This document shows positions 601-64,000 of a stretch of DNA of 64,000 nucleotides, one piece after another. Below the pieces are notes generated by a model that saw only the letters and a program-made list of their open reading frames with translations, did no database searches and was not told the origin of the DNA. The first letter of the stretch is position 1, and each line of letters begins with the position of its first letter. The translations under genes were made by a program, and so were the position numbers. The stretch covers positions 62,001-126,000 of the forward strand of contig NW_026862094.1 of assembly GCF_026571515.1 (NCBI RefSeq). The letters are read 5' to 3'. The DNA is from Ruditapes philippinarum (Eukaryota).

Positions 601-1974
601 TTGTATTATTCGTACTTGAAGTAAAATTTCAGCACCAACAGTTATTTCTCACTATTATCCTTGGTTTATCTCGACTGATAATTTTTCGCCTTTCTCCTGC
701 AGAGGTGTGAAATACACAAACCAGAAAATAATCTCTTTTTAGCGCGTGTCATAATGATGATTATGTTTGTAACAAGTTAATCTGTTTTTTATAAAAGTTA
801 ATCTAATTAGCGTGTTGGTTGACTTATGTCCAAAATGAGTGCATTTTCCGTCATATATAAAATAATTGAACATTGTGTTTAATTTAAATTATTATGACTT
901 TAAATGTAAATGAAAGAGTGAAAGAATAGAAACATTGTTTAACAACATCAAAAAATAAAAAATAAAATAAAAATAAATCAAAAATCTGTCGAACAATCTC
1001 GAGAAGGGTCCGCTAACCAACGCGGGAGGATATCTTGATCGACCATGCTGAAAACAACGTTTCACTATGGTGGTGTGTTACCTAGTAAACATCATTATGT
1101 GTAGTTATCACAGACTGCCGTATTTCCGCTGGTACTTGTAATAGCTTTGTTTAATATTGACTTTGCGATTTTAGGATCAAGAAAACAAGACATGGAGATA
1201 TCACACTTAGTTAATTTTATTTATGGTATGCACATATCTTTTGCAAATTTCAGTTTTTGACTGCAACAAACCCTGCAACGTTTATCTCGACATTTTGTTA
1301 TCTCTATATTTTTTGACAGTCTCGATGACTTCGAGATAACGAGAGTCGACTACATATTTGTAACGATATATTATTATTACTATTCCTACAATCAGGACTA
1401 TCTTGAATACTTCAAGGACAGCCTATAAAATCAACGTTATGCAAATCTAGATAAAGTATAGATTTAATTTACAAAGTCTTACAAGCTTAGCGTTTTATTG
1501 TTGTTGTTTGGGGTTTTTGGTGTTGTAATTTGTTTGATATTTGGGTCATTTCTTTTTCAATACAATAAGAATATGTTCACAATAGGATTAAAGTGGACGC
1601 TTGAAGTGAAATTCTTCACAATGCGAAACTTTTTTAAAGGCTTATTCGACATATGCAATAATATAATCCATTACATGTAAACACACTAGACAATTTCAGT
1701 ATGTAAGTATTGCACGTCATTTTTATACGCTAAAATATAACAAAACACATTCATGGAAACACGCCTACTTAGAAATAGCATGTTTCTTTTTTAAATCATT
1801 TAACAACCCATTTATATAGTCAATATGTGTGTTTGAAAAATATAAGCTACCATGATTTTCTTATTTGGCTTTCATTTGACATGCTTTTGGTATTTTCGAT
1901 AATGCGTGTGTTTGAATGCAATCCCTTTTCCAGTTCTTTTGATTACAATTTAGCTCTGATTCCACAGTCGATTA

Positions 1975-50737: not shown

Positions 50738-51148
50738 ATGAACATGGCTGCAAACGAAATTATATCACCCAGTGAGGCCGAAGAAGATCTGTCTCTCAGT
50801 ATTGAAGACAGTGAATTCGCTAGACCGCTTACTACAAAATATGTCGAAGTTTCAAGTTTAAATGGTACTAAATCCAGCGATGACTGCATGGTGTGCGCCC
50901 AGAGTATCCCGAAGAATCGATTTACCTTCCTTGCACAGATTATTGCAATCTACGGTATTATCATTGTGGCAGCAGTGAATCTCTCTGTTCGTCCGGACGG
51001 GCCTAATAAAGAACTTTGGGTTGCGTTGTTAGCCTCGGCTCTAGGTTGTGTTCTTCCGGCACCGGGGCTGAAGTATAGGAAGCCGGTGCAATCTATATCA
51101 AGCGGTTGGTTGTCGTCAGAGAGAAAAAATGAGAGAGACGGGCAATGA
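50738..51148 (+). CDS. Polinton small membrane protein (two hydrophobic segments), 136 aa
   Basis: FLAQIIAIYGIIIVAAVNLS and LWVALLASALGCVLPAP; overlaps the integrase start by 20 nt. Confidence 0.75.
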   Translation: MNMAANEIISPSEAEEDLSLSIEDSEFARPLTTKYVEVSSLNGTKSSDDCMVCAQSIPKNRFTFLAQIIAIYGIIIVAAVNLSVRPDGPNKELWVALLASALGCVLPAPGLKYRKPVQSISSGWLSSERKNERDGQ

Positions 51149-52274
51149 AACTAAACTGGAATACCTTAAACGTATTTACACCGACCCTTCGCACCCGGCC
51201 AGTTTCGGTGGGCGGCAACGATTGAAAAGGGAAGCAGACAGAGAAGGAAAATTCCATATCAGCAATAAAGAAATAGTTGAGTTTTTAGAATCACAGGATA
51301 CTTACAGCACGACCAGGAGAGTTCACAGGCGGTTCAAAAGAAACAGAATAAGAGTGAGCGGTATTCACATGCAATATGATATGGATTTATGCGACATGAT
51401 GAAAATGAGGCGCTTCCGGTACAACAAGGGAACCAGATATCTTCTCACTGTCATTGATGTATTTAGCAGGTATGCATTCGTAAGGCCTCTGCGCTCTAAG
51501 ACAGGACAAGCAGTGGCCAGTGCTCTAGAAGACATTCTGACCTCGGGCCCGAAACCGGCTCGTTGCAGATCGGACAGGGGCATGGAGTTCCGATGCAAGC
51601 CCGTGACAGACCTTCTAATGCGCCTAGGGATTAAACAGTATTTCAGTGCGTCCGCCTTGAAGTGTCAGCCTGTGGAGCGTTTTAATCAAACTCTGAAAGG
51701 CGCTATATACAAGTGGTGCTACGAGAACAGATCGTTCTCGTATGTTCCTGTGCTGGAAATGTTGGTGCACAGTTACAATCACCGCGTGCATTCATCACTA
51801 TTTGGACTCAGTCCAAGCGAGGTTTCAGAGTCAAACCAAGCGAGGCTCTGGAATTTGATGTACGTAGAAAATGCTAGTAGCAGTAAGAGTGGTGAGCGGC
51901 GAAAAGTCAGATTGTTTAAATACAGTGTAGGAGATCTGGTAAGGGTCAGCTTGGCTAAGCGTACATTTGAAAGATCTTACAACCAAAAATTCACATCTCA
52001 GATCTACAGAATACGAGGGCGGGTCTACCGTGATAACTTGCCAGTGTATTATCTGATGGACCTCGAAGAAAAACCAATAGAATCAACTTATTATGAAGCG
52101 GAACTGCAACGAGTGCGGAAGAATCTTGACAACATACAGGAATGGGAAATTGAAAAAATACTCAAGACGAAAAAATCAGGAAAGGGGCAGTTGGTGCTAG
52201 TTCGATACCGCGGCCTTGGACCAAGCTTCGACAGGTGGATATTGAAGTCTTCAATAAGCAGTAATCGTAAATGA
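51129..52274 (+). CDS. Polinton retroviral-like (rve) integrase with C-terminal chromodomain, 381 aa
   Basis: YTDPSHPASFGG start; DDE triad in DMDLCDM / SDRGMEF / VERFNQTLK; IDVFSRYA; chromodomain WEIEKILK...VRYRG...FDRWI. Confidence 0.95.
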   Translation: MRETGNETKLEYLKRIYTDPSHPASFGGRQRLKREADREGKFHISNKEIVEFLESQDTYSTTRRVHRRFKRNRIRVSGIHMQYDMDLCDMMKMRRFRYNKGTRYLLTVIDVFSRYAFVRPLRSKTGQAVASALEDILTSGPKPARCRSDRGMEFRCKPVTDLLMRLGIKQYFSASALKCQPVERFNQTLKGAIYKWCYENRSFSYVPVLEMLVHSYNHRVHSSLFGLSPSEVSESNQARLWNLMYVENASSSKSGERRKVRLFKYSVGDLVRVSLAKRTFERSYNQKFTSQIYRIRGRVYRDNLPVYYLMDLEEKPIESTYYEAELQRVRKNLDNIQEWEIEKILKTKKSGKGQLVLVRYRGLGPSFDRWILKSSISSNRK

Positions 52275-52311: not shown

Positions 52312-52776
52312 ATGGAGCAGTTCCATGTTGACATAAACAGTAAAGACTGTATTCAGTTGTATCCTCTTAATAATGGCTGCGAATTCCGAGTGGTAATGGA
52401 CGAAAGTCTTGTATTGAAAAACGGCAAAAGGTGGTCCGTCGCATTGGTCGGGTTGACAGTGAATTGTGACCATGACGACATGCAACTTAATGGACGGGAA
52501 TTGTACGTATGTTCAAACATTGTGGACTTTTCAGTGGTCGGGGGCAAAAAGGTTCAGCTATTGAGAAAGATTTGCCTGGGGGACGGGGTACGAACTGCAG
52601 AGGGGGGGCGCATGTTTTCTGTTGACACTATTGAAAATTGTTGCTTTTACAAAAGAGTTTATGGTCATGAGATAAAATGCATTCACATTTATAGTCTTTC
52701 TGCAACAGGCAAGAGAGCTACAGCACTGATAGATTGTACAGTAGGCGTAACTTTACATTTTAAATGCTCCAATTAG
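52312..52776 (+). CDS. Polinton minor capsid protein (penton), 154 aa
   Basis: INS..C..LYP.N...EFRV, WSVAL, LYVCSNIV.FSVVGG...QLLR and terminal TLHFK match Polinton minor-capsid motifs; lies between integrase and major capsid. Confidence 0.8.
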   Translation: MEQFHVDINSKDCIQLYPLNNGCEFRVVMDESLVLKNGKRWSVALVGLTVNCDHDDMQLNGRELYVCSNIVDFSVVGGKKVQLLRKICLGDGVRTAEGGRMFSVDTIENCCFYKRVYGHEIKCIHIYSLSATGKRATALIDCTVGVTLHFKCSN

Positions 52777-52900: not shown

Positions 52901-53353
52901 ATGGATACTAGAGGTGAACAATCCCGACTTCTGTACATCCCGGATTTCCAGGCTTGGGAAAGGATATATCAGAGCAAAGTTCCACGTCGTCCATTGTCAG
53001 AAGGAAAAAGGAGTACTGTGCATGTAAGAAATCCTGCAGACGTGAAACTTCGTTTCGTGTCACCTGTTGAAGAGACGGTTGATCAAGCCGAGAGTGAAAT
53101 CAGTTCAAAATCAAAGGCCGACTTTCGAGCTAAAAAAAGAAAAATTCAAGATACAGAAAGTCTGCCGAAGCAGCTGAGTGTTAAAGACGTAGTCCGGGCA
53201 TCTACTTCTACTGCTACCACTAGCTCTACTTCATTACAAAAGCAGAAAAGAAAAAAGCACAGACAGGAACAAGGAGTGAAGAAAATCGGTGTAAAAGACT
53301 CTAAGAAATTTAGTTACAGGACACTCAACGATATATTCAGTAAGTCGGGATAA
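52901..53353 (+). CDS. Polinton basic Lys/Arg-rich protein (putative core/DNA-binding), 150 aa
   Basis: YIPD..AW, VSPVE..VDQAESE, basic tracts and C-terminal DIF. Stop overlaps the capsid ATG (TAATG). Confidence 0.7.
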   Translation: MDTRGEQSRLLYIPDFQAWERIYQSKVPRRPLSEGKRSTVHVRNPADVKLRFVSPVEETVDQAESEISSKSKADFRAKKRKIQDTESLPKQLSVKDVVRASTSTATTSSTSLQKQKRKKHRQEQGVKKIGVKDSKKFSYRTLNDIFSKSG

Positions 53354-55107
53354 TGTCGGTTATTTCTCCACTAAGCGGTAGTGAAAGTGCGCCTGAAGCC
53401 CTGGATATATTCCGTATGTACCCGAACCAAGTCGCCGTACAGAATTACTATCAAGAAGACATCAGACCAGTAAGTCAGTTTGGTGGCATTGACGCTCCGC
53501 TGGAGTTCGAAACATCTCTTCAAGGAGATAGCTATTGTGAATTACCGTCTTCCCGACTATTTGTAAGAGCTCAAATTCTCAATGCAGACGGTACTGCATG
53601 CAGCGAGGATGTTAAAATATCTCCATGTGATCTGTTTTTCCATTCAATGTTCAAAAAGGTTGACATATACATGAATAGAACGCTTGTTTCCAGTTCCGGA
53701 GACTTATACCCCTACAAAAGCTTTTTCAACAAGTTATTTCGATGTGGCGTGAACACTGGCAATGGAACACTGTCAGAGAGTGAACTATTTTCTGGAAATG
53801 ATTCGGGTTTTCCGGCAGAAACAAATCCTAACGCAGGTAAGTTGCTGTATGCAACATGTGTCCATTTATTACTGATTATTACTGATTTCTTATGAATGAA
53901 TTAAATTATTTTATTGTTTATCGTTTTTGGTATTGATAAATAAACTTGACAAGTTAATAAAGAAGTAAAATAGAGCTATCAAAAAGGAAACANNNNNNNN
54001 NNNNNNNNNNNNNNNNNNNNNNNNNNNNNNNNNNNNNNNNNNNNNNNNNNNNNNNNNNNNNNNNNNNNNNNNNNNNNNNNNNNNNNNNNNNNNNNNNNNN
54101 NNNNNNNNNNNNNNNNNNNNNNNNNNNNNNNGCTATGCTATTCTATTCTATGCTATGAAATGCTTTGCTATGCTATGCCATGCCATGCCTTGCTATGCTC
54201 AAACTATTATTAATTTTATTTGCCTTCCTTTACTGCAGGTAATTTCTCATTGTTCCAGCGATACAAAGTCGGTCGTGGTTCTAAGCCATTTGACATGGTA
54301 GGGCTTCCACTGAATGACCTAATGGAACTTGATCGTTACCTTATCAATGGCGTTCATTTGAGAATCGTGCTTCATCGGAACAGCGCAGAGTTTTGTCTAA
54401 TAAGCGATGAAGACAATAATAATGGTGGATATCAAGTAAAACTACTCGACTGTTACCTTAGAATACTGAAATGTAAACCGAATCCAGCCATACTGGTCGC
54501 TCATAGTAAGGTACACAAGGGGCTCACTGCCAAGTATCCCTACATAAGAACCGAAACGAAAAGTGCTAATATTGCTAGCGGTCAGAGTGTGTTTTCATGG
54601 GATCATATTAACGCTTCCTACCTGCCAAAGTTGGTTATAGTTTCTTTTGCAGATAGCGCTGCAGTGCTGGGCTCGCTGAAATTGAACCCATTTAACATGG
54701 AACACTTTGATGTTCGCCAAATAAGTCTTTATGTAAATGGTATACCTTGTTCAGGGTGCCCAATCAATGTAAACTACAACCAAGATCTGACAGCGGAAGT
54801 GTTCGACCGGATGTACGGATTTGGCAAAGGGCGGCCATTATACACAGCAATGGGTGGTATCAGCGGCAAAGACCGTGGGAATGTCGGTATAAACAGAGCT
54901 GACCTAAAAAATGGAAGGGCTATATACGTATTCGATCTTGCTCCAATTATAGAAGAGCCATTTCATTTTGAGCTACAACACAGTGGAACGCTATCAATGC
55001 ACGTGAAATTTGGCAGCTCTCTTGCGCAAAATGTTGCTTGTATTTTTTATGCTGAATATGATGCTTTGATGGAAATTGATGAAACGCGTGGCGTGAAAAT
55101 TGTTTAA
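53353..55107 (+). CDS. Polinton major capsid protein (double jelly-roll), 450 aa, 2 exons
   Basis: Exons 53353-53836 and 54239-55107 with a phase-1 GTAAGT...TGCAG intron. Motifs LDIF..P.Q, PLEF, HSMF..VD, YPYK, RYLINGV.LR, LPK.V.V.F, NPFN..HFD, FDL.P, G.L...V.F, YAEY..L.EI. Confidence 0.9.
53993..54200. other. Assembly gap (53993-54131) and GCTAT-type microsatellite inside the capsid intron
   Basis: N run followed by GCTAT/GCCAT pentamers. Confidence 0.95.
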
Positions 55108-56620: not shown

Positions 56621-56743
56621 TTGGAGACCACCTGTCAGCTGGTACCCAGGCCCTTTTAGTCACGTGACAACACAGTTTATAAGCAAATGCTGAAGGTCTT
56701 TTTAAATCACTTGACCCTTGGAAATTCATCTGTTATAGAACAA

Positions 56744-58220
56744 ATGGAAAAGCTTTATATTTTGATTAGCCTTACGGCGCTATTTGCATTTAGCAGTAGT
56801 TTATGTGTGACAGAAGATGAAGGGAAAGATGGTATTGATTTGAGGTGTAGTTCCAGGTGGAGTGGAGAAGGTTCTAAAATCCGTCGTCTTATAGTACACA
56901 GCTGGGACGGCTCCTGCCACTTTCCGGAAGGGGGCCTTTTGACGCTTTACGGCGCAGATCAGGATTGTTTCACCTGTTCGAAGTCTATCCATGAGCGAAT
57001 GATGGTTAACGGAGAGAAATGTACAGTCGCTGTAAGTCACACATTCTTTTTTTATTTTAAATTTTACGATGAAATGTTAAGTGTTAAATCCTTGAAAATG
57101 ATATTTACTTTTTATCTCCCCCGAAAAGTGCATGAAAGGATCCAGCCCTGCATGTTTCTGTGCAGCGTCTCCGATATTAAAATACAATGTATGAAACCTC
57201 ATTTGTTCGGTAAATTCTTCTTTTTGCATTGCCTTCTGCTCGAACTGTCTGTATATTTTTAGCAGAAAACACGTTTGATAGATCCCTGGTATTATAATTA
57301 TATTTAATTAACAAAAGACATTTATCTGCAGGTTCCTACAGCAAGGTCAGAATCGAAAATTTCCGGAAGCAGCAGAACCACAACTGGGTCAATAGATTTC
57401 ACGACAGAGCTCTACGAGGCAGTCTGGCAGGTAAAAGGTAGCATCCATGGCACCACAACTACAGCAGCTGAAACCTATAGTGCATCCTCAAGTTTGCAAG
57501 GTACTTACATAATATTTGTTTTATTTACGCCTTTAAAACTAATTATATAATTTGCAGTTTGAATAAACTATTATTTTAAATGCGGATGCGTGCATTTTTA
57601 TGTACAGCACAACTTTTTAACTTCCCTTTCCAACTTGAGGTCATATTTATTCGATTTTTTTTTTTGTTGTTGAAAATTTAACTATTTGTTGCCATTTGTG
57701 TTATAAGAATGTAATGCACCTAAATTATAGATTAATTCTGTTGAGATTTGATCATTCTGGTCAGGATTGCACTGTATTTTCAACCTTTTTACAGACAGTG
57801 GTTCGATCCCCAGATGGACATATGGGCTGTTGTCAACTTTAGCGGTAACTGTCCTGGTCTTATTCGTGCTCCTAGTACTGTTGCTATTGCGTTATAGGAG
57901 ACAACGGGCGTATATTTGCTGTAAACCAAGAACAAGTCCAAGTGTAAGCATGGAATCTGTTATGATATATCCGTTGCCGACATTACAACTTTAATATTTG
58001 TAAATTTACAGAACTATGCATATTGGTGACAGTCGCACTGGTTGTAAAATTTCTGAAGGGTTTTAATTGGCAGCCTCATCCTCTCCAACAACAACAACAA
58101 CAACAACAACAACATCGTAGATTTCAAGGAGGTAGAGAGCTTGTGATTAATCAACCCCATAGGGCACTACGACCACAGAGGGCTCGGAGGCAAGTCCAAA
58201 GATTACAAATATCGTGGTAA
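56744..58220 (+). CDS. Spliced type I membrane protein inside the Polinton region, unknown family
   Basis: Exons 56744-57031 (signal peptide, 6 Cys), 57332-57500 (Ser/Thr-rich), 57795-57943 (transmembrane, RYRR, CC), probable 58074-58220 (polyQ, Arg-rich). Phases 0/1/0 fit; last exon ambiguous. Confidence 0.7.
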
Positions 58221-58735
58221 AAATAAGCTCGCGCCAGTGTGTGTGTGTATTTTATTTCTGATGTGACACCATGTGTTTTCTTAGAGTGCTACTTAGTTGT
58301 GGACACCATGTGTTTTCTTAGAGTGCTACTTAGTTGTGTGTCACTTATTGGCACTGGGATTTTCTGTGTATGATTTCTTTCTGTTACATCATGTATAAAT
58401 AGTAATTTCTTATGTCTTTCTATATTAAATGAGTAGAAAAATGTGCCGCAGTATATGTGCATGAATCGTTAGTGTTTCTGGTGTGTATGAGTTAAGTATC
58501 TAAGACGAAACATTTCAAAGAATTGTTATCTGTGTTGACGTGACAACCAACGTTCCAAGTGTTCTATATTTTGTTTCCCGGTGTTCTATATTTTGTCTCA
58601 TATATGTCATAGTAAAGTGTAAATGACAAGTTTTAAAACTCGTTTGATTACCTACACTATAATCTTTGAAATAGTGAAGATGTCAGACTTAAAGATGGCA
58701 GATTTTCTTTCATGAATTCTTGGTTATCTTAATTT

Positions 58736-58922
58736 GAGCCGTGTCACGACAAAACCAACATAGTGGGTTTGCGACCAGCATGGATCCTTTACAAACCCTA
58801 TTACAAGTAGAGAAACTGATAGCGACCAGCATGGATCCTGATCAGACTGCGCGGATGCGCAGGCTGGTCTGGATCCATGCTGGTCGCAAACCCACTATGT
58901 TGGTTTTGTCATGACACGGCTC
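58736..58922. mobile_element. Palindromic MITE (Sola-like), copy 3, internally deleted, nested in the Polinton region
   Basis: ATTT|GAGCCGTGTCACGAC ... GTCATGACACGGCTC|ATTT. Confidence 0.85.
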
Positions 58923-59784
58923 ATTTAATTTTTTTTTGTATAAAGACGGGTTTTTTCGTGGAATGCTTCAGTTATATACTAAGCGAAAGTTCTAACACCC
59001 CCACACATTTGCCTTTCAGCTAGTCATAAATTGGTTGTCTTATTACATAGTATTATAATTAAAATGGGTGTTAGAAGTTTCGACAATACACCGAGTCATG
59101 ACACACGAAAATATACACCGGATGATGCATGTTTTTGTTTAATTGTTATTCTTACTAGATAGTTTTACCAGTGTAGAATATTGTTTAAAATCGAAAATAA
59201 ATCAGTGAAATATTCATTTTCGTTTTACTCTGTTGTCCGTGAACCAGACCTTCATGTTCTATACATGGTCTCCTATTACCGGGAATTAATGTCTTGCCAT
59301 TTAACGGAAGAAAAAATAAGAATACGTTTAGCTTTATATAAAAATAGCATTATCATCATTAATTTTCATGGATCACTTTTAATCTTCGATGGATGCTTAG
59401 TTTTTCTTCTATTATATGGCAAGCTTTAACAATAGGCCTATTGGAGGAACAATAGCATATTTACAGTAACGTTACGAAGAATGATAATCACGTTCGTCTA
59501 TACAAAATGTGTGATCATTATCTTCGAGAAATGATTAATAGGGCAACAGTGGCTGAACGCATTAAATAATGCAGATAACAAGTTAGAACGCAAAACATTT
59601 GATTGCAGTATATAACAGGTTTAATGGCAAAGAACAGTGACGATTTAAAATAAATAATAAAGACATAATCTGGCAAAATTTGACAGGTTAAATATCAAAA
59701 GAAAAAAAAAAGAACAACTACAAAACACTGAAAAGAAAAGACATCAAAAATAAATATAATCCTTCACTGATTTTTTTACACATA

Positions 59785-60516
59785 CTACAACGAGAATTCG
59801 CCGTCCCCCGAATAACACTCTTTCAACAGTCTAAAAACTTCCTTGCTCTGATTTGGCCTGTCAATTTCAAAAGCGCAGTCATATTCTTTTCTTATTTTCG
59901 TTATCCAGAATATGCTACTGTCTGTCACATAATGCAATCTCTTGCAAGTCAGTTTAAAATGGAACAAATCAGTCATTTTAAGGTGATGTGCAATTTTTTG
60001 CAGAATAACGTCTGGCAGTCATAAAAGGAACACATCATCTGAACCTTGGGTTGTGTCCATGTCACTGTCCTCACTTGACCACCAGTCACTGTTTTCTTGT
60101 TCAGGCTCTTCCCAGCGCATGTCCGATGACCTAGACTGGTCCTGGTTGTCTTCGTCTGCGGATTGGCCACTTTCGTCATCACTTATGACGACGGCAACAT
60201 CCGAGCAATCGGAATACCTCAGTCTCATCCTTAGCTGGCTGATTCCAGGCAGACCTGAATCAACATTTTCCTTGTTCTCGTCGGTCAGATCGATCGGCAT
60301 CAGTGCATTTCGTCCAACATTATCCTGATATAATGCCGCCTGCTCGCAGGTGTCCACAATTACCCCGATTGAAGAACATAATCGAATCAGCCCCATTTTA
60401 GAAAGTGTAACCTGAGTGCCTGAACGCACATTTATTATAGTTCCAACAGCCTTTCCGTTCACTATGTCCATTTTCAAGTAATTTTCAATATCGAGAGAAA
60501 CACAATTTGAAGCCAT
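59785..60516 (-). CDS. Accessory protein with acidic linker and C-terminal F-box, interrupted by one in-frame TGA (60021-60019)
   Basis: MASNC... 165-aa ORF continues in frame past the stop: DVFLL*LPDVILQKIAHHLKMTDLFHFKLTCKRLHYVTDSSIFW, matching the F-box consensus LP.EIL..I...L...DL.....CK.......W. Confidence 0.7.
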
Positions 60517-61878: not shown

Positions 61879-62438
61879 GATATTTTCATTTCTGAGCGCT
61901 AGTGTGGCTTTAACCATTTCAGTATATTTTATGTGTATTTGAAAATCTGCGGCAATCTATTGATATTTTCATTTCTGAGCGCTAGTGTGGCTTTAACCAT
62001 TTCAGTATATTTTATGTGTATTTGAAAATGTGCGGCAATCTATTGACATTTTCGTTTCTGAGCGCTAGTGGGGCTTTAACCATTTCAGTATATTTTATGT
62101 GTATTTGAAAATGTGCGGCAATCTATTGATATTTTCGTTTCTGAGCGCTAGTGGGGCTTTAACCATTTCAGTATATTGTATGTGTATTTGAAAATGTGCG
62201 GCAATCTATTGATATTTTCGTTTCTGAGCGCTAGTGGGGCTTTAACCATTTCAGTATATTTTATGTGTATTTGAAAATGTGCGGCAATCTATTGATATTT
62301 TCGTTTCTGAGCGCTAGTGGGGCTTTAACCATTTCAGTATATTGTATGTGTATTTGAAAATGTGCGGCAATCTATTGATATTTTCATTTCTGAGCGCTAG
62401 TGGGGCTTTAACCATTTAAGTATATTTTATGTGTATTT
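61879..62438. repeat. 83-bp tandem array, ~6.7 near-identical copies
   Basis: CTGAGCGCTAG at 61892, 61975, 62058, 62141, 62224, 62307 and 62390. Confidence 0.95.
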
Positions 62439-62514
62439 TCTCATGCTAATGTAAACAATGCAGGACGCCCCTCAGGCTACAAAGACGGGATATTGTCTGT
62501 TCTGATGATATAAC

Positions 62515-62800
62515 CATGTATATACATGTATTACCGTCACAAGATTATACATCTTCTCTAGAGTTAATTAAGCCTAGCCGCCCCTATCATGTATATACAT
62601 GAGTTACCGTCACTAGATTATACATGTTTGCTACAGTTAAGCCTAGCAGCCCCGATCATGTACATACATGAGTTACCGTCACTAGATTATACATGTTTGC
62701 TACAGTTAAGCCTAGCAGCCCCGATCATGTACATACATGAGTTACCGTCACTAGATTATACATGTTCGCTACAGTTAAGCCCCCGAACATGTACATACAT
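62515..62800. repeat. 69-bp tandem array, ~4 copies
   Basis: TTACCGTCA at 62531, 62604, 62673 and 62742. Confidence 0.9.
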
Positions 62801-62904: not shown

Positions 62905-64000
62905 ATGGCAAATTCCAGCGACGAAAACGAGTTCATAAGAAACCTTCTATTCCCAGATGATGAAAACGTAACGTATGAACCAAGCTCACCGGAAGTGCGA
63001 GATCAGCTAAGAAAACTAAATGAAAAGTTACTGGATGGTTCTGTGTGTCCAAAATGTGGAAAGCAATTTTTTAATAAATCGAATTCAATAAAACACCAGA
63101 GATCGGCAGTGTGTGATAAAAAAAAGGAAAAACGCTGTCAAACTTGTAAAAAGGAGTTCAGGAAACCGTGTGAATTAAAGAGACATATGCTACAATGTGC
63201 TGCTATGACAGAGCAATGTACTTTATGCCAGAAGAAGTTTAAATCACGAAAATATCTGGACCTTCATATGCAACGGTCCCATGAGAACGCTTGTCCAATA
63301 TGTGGTGAAAATTTTGTGGACAACAGAGAACAGCTTGTTGCTCACGCAAGAAGACATTTCAAGGATGACTATCTAACACTGCCTCAAGTGAAAGCACTTA
63401 GGAAAATAACTGGTAAATCGGCGTTGCTTCCGGTGGACCGGAATAGTAATTCTAGTGATTCATCTAACGCCGTTCGTGCTTCTAGTGATCCAATTCCAGG
63501 ACCATCCGGTGCGCCGAACATGGATCCGGCCTTTCAGCAAACATCAAGACCGATACACGGAAACGCTGGTATAGAGATATCGGTTACTCCAAGTGGCACA
63601 GAAAAATATTCCCTGTTGGCGCTGTTTGACGGGAAACGACAACAAATAAGTTGGAACCTAGAGACGCATTTACAAAGGTAACACATTTTTATCATGTAAT
63701 TTATATACATCAAATATGTGTGTGTGAATTAATGTATAGCATAAATACGAACTAAATTTAAACGCATGTGATTATCAAATTTATATACATGTACACATTA
63801 TAATTATGAATATCGATATCAATTTTTTTCCGAAGCAAGAAAATATAATGCCTCTGGAGCACCCATTGAATAAAATATTCATTCAAACAGTTTATAGAAG
63901 TATATATATTTCACTTCCCTTTGCAGATGGACCAATGTGCGTTGGTATTTGAATGCAAAATGCAGGATGATTCGGTACGACAACGAAGGAAATATAAGGT
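62905..64000 (+). CDS. Zinc-finger protein, probably the N-terminus of the Polinton protein-primed DNA polymerase B; spliced, runs off the window
   Basis: Exon 62905-63677 has four C2H2/C2HC fingers. A phase-2 intron (63678-63926) joins to give LLALFDGKRQQISWNLETHLQR-WTNVRWYLNAKCRMIR, which resembles the region before the polymerase domains in Polinton pPolB. No catalytic motifs are in the window. Confidence 0.65.

Follow-up and report, generated by a model that had tools for sequence, protein, structure and literature searches.

Whether animal Polintons are viruses with an infectious cycle is an old question, argued mostly from their capsid genes. A spliced gene for a predicted membrane protein within such an element of the clam Ruditapes philippinarum raises it in another form: what would a Polinton do with a protein of the cell surface? 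The gene lies in the 64-kb window analysed here (positions 62001-126000 of contig C10581; all coordinates below are relative to the window), and RefSeq lists it as LOC132717885, uncharacterized, with isoforms X1/X2 (proteins XP_060557443/4). The original prediction had described four exons, each encoding one module of the protein.

Seven runs among 24 were examined for transcripts. Five of these (runs X1-X5), Logan contigs from five studies, were taken as RNA by guess and give neither expression level nor strand. Their contigs omit intron 1 exactly at its GT..AG borders in every one of the five runs, which shows that the gene is transcribed and spliced; a lack of transcripts, which the original prediction had named as fatal to it, is thus not what we found. 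Two raw-read runs labelled RNA-Seq (X23 and X24) show a flat depth of 0-2, loose ends bounded by GATC and no splice joint; they look like ligation (Hi-C-type) DNA libraries and were set aside.

The contigs reveal two alternative last exons, A and B. Intron 2, which begins at 57501, ends at 57794 in X3 and X4 (joint 57500->57795) and at 58011 in X2 and X5 (joint 57500->58012), giving isoform A of 218 aa and isoform B of 221 aa, with three exons per mRNA. The two RefSeq isoforms are the same A/B pair. The gene is therefore a spliced membrane-protein gene, as predicted, and the four-exon, module-per-exon product is not what is made. Frames were computed for a third intron with its donor at 57942/57944 and its acceptor at 58012/58033/58059/58074; no such joint occurs in the contigs, which cross the putative intron unbroken (X1 57793-58039, X3 57793-58073, X4 57906-58294) and contain the alternative read-through to the stop at 57994. 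Because no third intron was found in the contigs, the TM exon and the polyQ tail are mutually exclusive: polyQ, predicted to be fused behind the TM exon, belongs to isoform B, which skips that exon.

The modules themselves were largely read correctly. The signal-peptide-like start at ATG 56744, the six-Cys ectodomain and the Ser/Thr stalk were all borne out, as was a TM helix followed by a basic stop-transfer and CC in the exon at 57795. Specifically, the ectodomain comprises ~75 aa, and its six Cys (C21, C35, C58, C75, C78 and C93), within a 73-aa span, are invariant in 7/7 genomic copies. The helix of isoform A spans ~23 residues, with a best 19-residue KD value of 3.03. The hydrophobic stretch of isoform B reaches a KD value of 2.34 over 15 residues and of 1.74 over 19 residues, the latter being 0.5-0.85 in relatives. 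The Gln run of isoform B varies in length, with in-frame gaps of 3 and 6 bases in the RNA contigs and five Gln in a sister copy of 91% identity. Some consensus patterns were considered for the tails, namely furin cleavage (all B tails have RxRR), PP1 RVxF and ITIM, and were not adopted, as they lie on the wrong side of the membrane or are not conserved.

Upstream of the gene, an E-box and a TATA-like box form a putative promoter. The pair precedes the gene in all three lineages described below, the E-box core being exact in six of the seven copies and carrying one mismatch in the seventh. The E-box word occurs four times in the window against 0.78 expected, twice within this element. The RefSeq ATG at 56687 directly follows the TATA-like box, so 56744 is probably the likelier start. 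Contigs of X2, X3 and X5 join exon 1 at cryptic AG acceptors (56797, 56851) from foreign upstream sequence; such transcripts would be without the signal peptide. The upstream piece in X5 matches non-element DNA on two other contigs, where it is followed by GTAAGT (L117:1501-1529), which suggests that this animal either makes host-to-element chimeric transcripts by splicing or has the element inserted at another site. For one upstream loose end, the assembly contained no match.

Table 1. Features of the gene and of the element around it (window coordinates unless a locus is named).
Feature	Position	Strand	Remarks
Conserved 136-aa ORF, two hydrophobic segments	50738-51148		Directly before integrase; present in distant Polintons of the same genome too
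Retroviral-type integrase with chromodomain	51129-52274	+	Pfam rve E 1.2e-13, Chromo E 8e-4
Penton (minor capsid)-like ORF	52312-52776	+	Presumed from position and general likeness; no profile match
150-aa ORF			Between penton-like ORF and capsid-like gene in window order
Major-capsid-like gene, two exons	53353-55107	+	Predicted intron 53837-54238
Putative promoter	56660-56667 and 56678-56683	+	Palindromic E-box TCACGTGA and TATA-like box
Exon 1, coding	56744-57031	+	Predicted signal peptide (~residues 1-19) and six-Cys ectodomain
Intron 1	57032-57331	+	GT..AG, phase 0; skipped in 5/5 spliced-contig runs X1-X5
Exon 2, stalk	57332-57500	+	22/56 residues Ser/Thr; ends in phase 1
Last exon A, coding part	57795-57994	+	Long TM helix, RYRRQR, CC, KPRTSP..SMESV..PTLQL tail, stop
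Last exon B, coding part	58012-58220	+	12-15-residue hydrophobic stretch, Gln run, Arg-rich tail, final Trp
(CAA)9 microsatellite	58086-58112	+	PolyQ of isoform B
F-box-like frame and 165-aa ORF	59785-60018 and 60019-60516	-	Pfam F-box E 3.9e-8; syntenic in sister copies
C2H2 zinc-finger first exon of polymerase-like gene	62905-63677	+	Gene continues past window end
Sister-lineage membrane gene	L024:2490-2864 and 1329-1505	-	Also L022, L027, L061/L062, L059/L060, L063/L064

The genes around this locus are those of a Polinton. The major-capsid, penton and polymerase labels are ones that we take from gene order and characteristic motifs; the capsid-like and penton-like ORFs had no Pfam, PHROG or PDB sequence match, and the 136-aa ORF had no Pfam match. 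The polymerase-like gene, presumably that of a protein-primed family B polymerase by its motifs, has several exons with zinc-finger, endonuclease VII-like and GDTDS-motif frames, whose single exons gave no DNA_pol_B_2 or PDB match. No protease, adenain-like or other, was identified among the ORFs scanned. A packaging ATPase was not found in the window and the 20 kb downstream, nor were TIRs for this copy; because both are missing over this span, the element here is a truncated Polinton, and its expression now may be a leftover. Sister copies possess the ATPase (Pfam Pox_A32, E 3.2e-6, over the cut-off), and TIRs of 292-393 bp (94-99%) are present in four of the six copies examined.

The capsid-like gene has 68 matches genome-wide. 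Genomic comparison (loci L010, L016, L008, L011 and L017) indicates that both the capsid-like and the polymerase-like genes contain GT..AG interruptions with conserved positions and phases. The donor of the capsid-like intron is kept in 3/3 and its acceptor in 4/4 copies compared, and the donor and acceptor of the polymerase-like gene (63678 onward) are kept in 3/3 copies. These predicted introns would set the clam lineage apart from the intronless-core Mavericks of vertebrates and nematodes. Vertebrate Mavericks are described as being without introns (PMC8097293), and the nematode elements as combining intronless core genes with intron-bearing cargo (10.1101/2022.07.12.499685; PMC10748475).

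The predicted location between capsid and polymerase genes holds on one side: the gene comes directly after the capsid-like gene, while the F-box-like frame and the 165-aa ORF intervene before the polymerase. The F-box-like frame is kept in both element lineages, is without its own ATG and abuts the 165-aa ORF, of which it may be a spliced or stop-separated part. A very abundant palindromic short repeat (MITE/SINE-like) at 58732-58927, behind the gene, swamps read mapping, and two tandem arrays with units of ~84 and ~69 bases (by eye) occupy 61900-62800, before the polymerase-like gene. Elsewhere, a rearranged Polinton fragment on C10716 is accompanied by an open frame of 691 codons (L013:3861-5933) with an HSP70-like N-terminal motif.

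We searched the genome with three different exon-1 proteins and exon A, and with local profiles on the loci, so that the counts are lower bounds. The ectodomain exon occurs at at least 11 places on 10 contigs, and tail exons only at at least three more. Element genes lie within 10 kb at 13 of the 14 places carrying close-family exons; the remaining place, on C10419, has only non-coding flanks in common with element copies. The copies on C1945 and C14624 sit between TIRs of 393 and 343 bp. The close homologues are thus multi-copy and tied to Polinton genes, the reverse of the unlinked single-copy host genes that were to count against the original prediction.

The copies form three lineages (this copy; C2186/C14624/C10716/C10419/C1145; C1945/C2131) between which synonymous sites are saturated. 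Across all three, the six Cys, a WDG.C.FP and LYG framework, both phase-1 acceptors and both tails are kept, and the B acceptor lies 17-31 bases behind the stop of exon A. The Arg-rich B tail is conserved among copies. A YxxL motif of relatives (YPTL in the C1945 and C1145 copies) reads YPLP here and FPTL in the clam Mercenaria mercenaria. When 1.84 billion proteins were searched with a profile, 19 matched, of which three belong to the locus itself, three are repeat proteins (P0011, P0015 and P0019, dropped) and 13 are relatives; these repeat proteins and the 39-aa fragment P0016 were left out of alignment A6. Among the protein records, M. mercenaria LOC123527406 has the same design, with a RefSeq X1 of A type (tail ending PTLQL) and an X2 of B type, and P0006, from a Logan contig, is a spliced B form. 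Longer, fused forms were not found: the range 169-2000 aa yields proteins of the own locus only and the range 351-2000 aa none. IMG/VR contains no relative of the ectodomain or the capsid exon, and no free virus of the lineage. Two matches of 10-13 residues in a metagenome scan were dismissed as chance.

In all copies with intact gene order, the gene directly follows the capsid-like gene on the same strand. Among 20 stretches downstream of capsid matches (two of which end at contig ends), three carry the six-Cys gene family and three carry, in the same slot and on the opposite strand, a different spliced type I membrane gene. The latter belongs to a sister Polinton lineage on six contigs, where a gene with signal peptide, Cys domain, stalk and TM lies between the capsid and F-box genes. 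The slot is therefore kept while its content changes. Stretches from more distant Polintons contain neither membrane gene (4/4), in agreement with genome-wide searches. An SMESV tail motif is common to the sister-lineage gene and exon A (by eye); homology of the two ectodomains, with hhalign E values of 0.13 and 0.21, is not significantly supported.

Divergence is much faster in the ectodomain than in the capsid. Between lineages, identity is 73-78% in the capsid exons, 60% in the penton-like ORF and 50-65% in exon A, compared with 37-45% in the ectodomain exon and 31-40% in exon B. Between the close copies C2186 and C14624, capsid exon 2 is 98% identical (dN 0.007, dS 0.017; seven differing sites in 264 codons) and the ectodomain 87% identical (dN 0.086, dS 0.114; 18 differing sites in 69 codons). 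As both dN and dS are raised, the difference suggests that elements have swapped ectodomain alleles. For the ectodomain, three pairs of one lineage give a dN/dS of 0.69-0.80, and a pair of another lineage gives 0.19; the ratio never exceeds 1 in the pairs compared, so these give no signal of positive selection, and the values fit relaxed constraint or decay after insertion too.

The original prediction recognised no family for the protein, and our searches agree. Exon 1 matched 0 Pfam families, and the 18 members gave no consistent Pfam match and no LRR; PHROGs gave no match, PDB sequences 0 at E<=10, and the ESM Atlas a best value of 0.77, below the usable level, with no Atlas match for the host-type domain described below. 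By comparison with Pfam and PDB, the six-Cys ectodomain is thus best described as a new protein family. A first structure model had a pLDDT of 55.7 and a best Z of 3.1. AlphaFold2 with 18 sequences predicted a small beta-rich domain (pLDDT 87.7, pTM 0.76), so that the suggested modelling gave a confident structure, and the fold search that was to follow gave no significant match. Foldseek with this second model returned a best E of 0.6 in PDB and 1.2 in BFVD with no Ig or gB row among the matches listed, a result that leaves room for such a fold, and the best VIA Z was 4.2 (metallo-beta-lactamases). LRR N-termini (caps and first repeats of extracellular proteins) recur among the weak VIA matches at Z 3-3.9, level with unrelated folds (TLR5, Z 3.9, rmsd 3.2 over 69; GPIb-alpha, Z 3.7, rmsd 3.3 over 73). 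An LxxLxLxxW-like spacing, a pattern picked after inspection of the alignment, is present in 16 of 18 related rows and in 7% of shuffles. A miniature Cys-capped LRR-like fold may be proposed from these models as a lead only. N-glycosylation sequons number 0 in this ectodomain and one each in three of the 18 rows.

A weak genomic match led to a third subfamily of the domain, which is about 27% identical (26-28%) to that of the element (HMM 62-80 bits). This host-type subfamily has nine matches on five contigs (C1231, C541, C6799, C9796 and C7774; gene pieces L085:7497-9697 and L086:684-920) with 79-100% mutual identity, and its pN/pS of 0.15-0.73 over 10 pairs indicates purifying selection. None of 20 stretches around it contains a Polinton gene. 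The host gene has six phase-compatible exons, encoding a signal peptide, ATG27/MRH-like exons, a Pro-rich linker and, as the last part before the stop, the six-Cys domain. Its exons match in order those upstream of the over-cut-off PF09451 matches at C7443 and C6205 (exon 2 at 55%, E 5e-9); single exons had no Pfam match. The gene is repeated in tandem, and every copy lies tail to tail with a gene for a C1q-domain protein. Since its last exon is the homologous six-Cys domain, the element and a predicted secreted host protein have a module in common, with differences on both sides: no TM exon was found in the host gene, and the element protein contains no ATG27/MRH-like domain. In a tree of 18 domains the host-type rows form a starred group; the deeper branches are open, long branches meet there, and the direction of domain transfer is not readable from it. 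The original prediction had set an accessory protein against a captured host gene; these are not alternatives, as a gene that is an integral part of the element contains a domain with distant relatives in the host.

What, then, does the protein do? The explanation that we favour, at about an even chance and by analogy, is an element-borne accessory membrane protein like those of adenovirus E3, whose fast-changing ectodomain would bind a host surface or immune factor and so blunt the host response. The signal peptide would direct the protein into the secretory pathway, with a disulfide-bonded beta-rich fold carried on an O-glycosylated, mucin-like stalk. Isoform A would reach the cell surface by its ~23-residue helix, basic stop-transfer and palmitoylatable CC (juxtamembrane Cys are palmitoylated), and its conserved CC/KPRTSP/S.ES Ser/Pro tail may engage host sorting, trafficking or kinase machinery. 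Retention in the ER/Golgi is favoured by short helices and by Arg motifs; isoform B, with its short anchor and Arg-rich tail, may be retained there or released. One binding domain could then act in two compartments, much as adenovirus E3 proteins are retained in the ER or displayed at the surface and shed. The ectodomain perhaps mimics its host relative, and the six-Cys domain may have been exchanged with the secreted ATG27/MRH-like family in either direction.

Adenoviruses descend from Polinton-like ancestors, and adenovirus E3 is heavily spliced. Like the E3 CR1 family, the clam protein would be a type I membrane protein with an accessory role in a dsDNA virus, and it has a compact ectodomain and a long low-complexity linker. 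E3/49K is described (PMC13437282) as a type I protein that has Ig-like CR1 domains, a disordered linker and YxxPhi/LL motifs and that is shed, and the clam protein resembles it, as far as that account goes, in its short tail with putative sorting motifs and in having membrane-bound and possibly released forms. The two forms arise differently, by alternative last exons in the clam and by shedding in the E3/49K described there. In addition, the clam domain shows no sequence or fold link to CR1/Ig in the searches made, its type I topology is predicted from sequence, the heavy N-glycosylation of E3 CR1 and HCMV RL11 proteins is almost missing from its ectodomain, and its host is a bivalve without adaptive immunity.

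The premise of Polintons as elements without membrane proteins is too strong, as nematode Mavericks encode MFUS-1 (10.1101/2022.07.12.499685). This protein of 866 aa is a herpesvirus gB-like class III type I fusogen (10.1101/2022.07.12.499685; PMC10748475). Like MFUS-1 as described there, the clam protein is Polinton/Maverick-encoded with a signal peptide and a single TM; unlike MFUS-1, an intronless core gene for which that work detected no transcription, it is spliced, transcribed and only 218/221 aa long. A class III fusogen has a large multi-domain ectodomain with fusion loops, whereas here there are ~75 aa and a 56-aa stalk, and a fusogen role for the 75-aa ectodomain is unlikely. On the features compared, the clam protein appears to be a member of neither CR1/RL11 nor the class III fusogens.

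Other Polinton genes offer partial parallels. Intron-bearing Maverick cargo such as the wasp proteases and kinases (10.1101/2022.07.12.499685) is, as far as described, likewise spliced inside the element and likely a host-derived module; unlike this cargo, which occupies a variable TIR-integrase region and represents near-identical recent transfers, the clam gene has a fixed slot after the capsid and has diverged with its element, whose own capsid and polymerase genes also contain conserved predicted introns. Adintoviruses have accessory genes for PLA2X, GasderminX and Cupiennin (PMC8502044), which resemble the clam gene in being accessory to an animal Polinton and in having products that act on membranes; the main text of that source describes no surface protein with signal peptide and TM, and 'glycoprotein' and 'splic' occur 0 times in it. 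Polinton-like regions abound in bivalve genomes, and their survey took no account of introns in the portion available (10.1101/2025.04.19.649669). The coral and bivalve TE papers hold no relevant passage, and no paper on the six-Cys gene family was listed in literature searches; elements of this kind may figure in the supplementary gene maps of PMC8502044 and of 10.1101/2025.04.19.649669.

Several other explanations have to be weighed against the E3-like one. Its position on the same strand behind the capsid-like gene, together with the conserved Arg-rich B tail, could indicate a virion-associated or egress protein, with A or B on a membrane that wraps or releases capsids, a B tail that would bind to capsid or DNA, and an ectodomain for attachment; nematode Mavericks have been proposed to be enveloped (10.1101/2022.07.12.499685; PMC10748475). 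We consider this role unlikely, as the ectodomain has 75 aa against the 866 aa of MFUS-1, the slot is taken in the sister lineage by a different gene that runs on the opposite strand, the more distant Polintons of the genome do without both genes, and the gene has its own putative promoter. Somewhat less probable still is superinfection exclusion or receptor interference, whereby the protein displayed by an integrated element would block or take away the receptor that related viruses use, perhaps by now to the clam's advantage. Expression of a truncated copy in five studies and lineage-specific, mosaic ectodomains would suit this reading, and the ER-type isoform B could trap a receptor; however, no link of the ectodomain to capsid or fibre was found, and relatives of the domain occur in a secreted host protein. 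Exclusion systems usually reuse the virus's own receptor-binding protein, which also counts against it.

The gene might also be a domesticated or ordinary host gene lying by chance in a dead element: it is listed among the clam's genes in RefSeq, it is intact here although many of its sister copies are broken, and its domain has host relatives. This origin is improbable and largely refuted, since all close homologues in the genome searched lie within element remains, the A/B design is older than this insertion, and the host relatives combine low identity with another architecture and surroundings free of Polinton genes. Among close copies dN/dS is near 0.7-0.9, as would be expected of passive cargo without function or of chance open frames; we give this reading hardly any weight, because it is refuted by deep conservation, the six Cys, the Trp/Gly framework, the acceptors, anchors and promoter being kept across saturated lineages and the design being present in two clam genera.

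Taken with the E3-like explanation that we prefer, these results describe a new family that would follow a known viral strategy in a varied form, within a Polinton lineage that is unusual for its introns. A more specific version is possible, and in our view doubtful: a bivalve Polinton lineage whose capsid and polymerase genes have spliceosomal introns and which has an E3-like immune-evasion slot, in which a new miniature Cys-capped (LRR-like) binding domain taken from a lectin-like secreted immune protein of the clam would be sent to the surface and to the ER through conserved alternative splicing. If that version is true, it is direct evidence of an infectious cycle from cell to cell that animal Polintons went through under immune pressure, and adenovirus E3 has a parallel among invertebrates. 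The conserved introns predicted in core genes would escape ORF-based surveys of Polintons. A 75-aa domain without a name is now defined, common to the element and to a host family beside C1q immune genes, and the protein is small and expressible, with a partner that can be sought in a farmed clam. A conserved, transcribed and alternatively spliced surface protein with a rapidly changing ectodomain is what one would expect an element to retain if it encountered host cell surfaces or host immunity.
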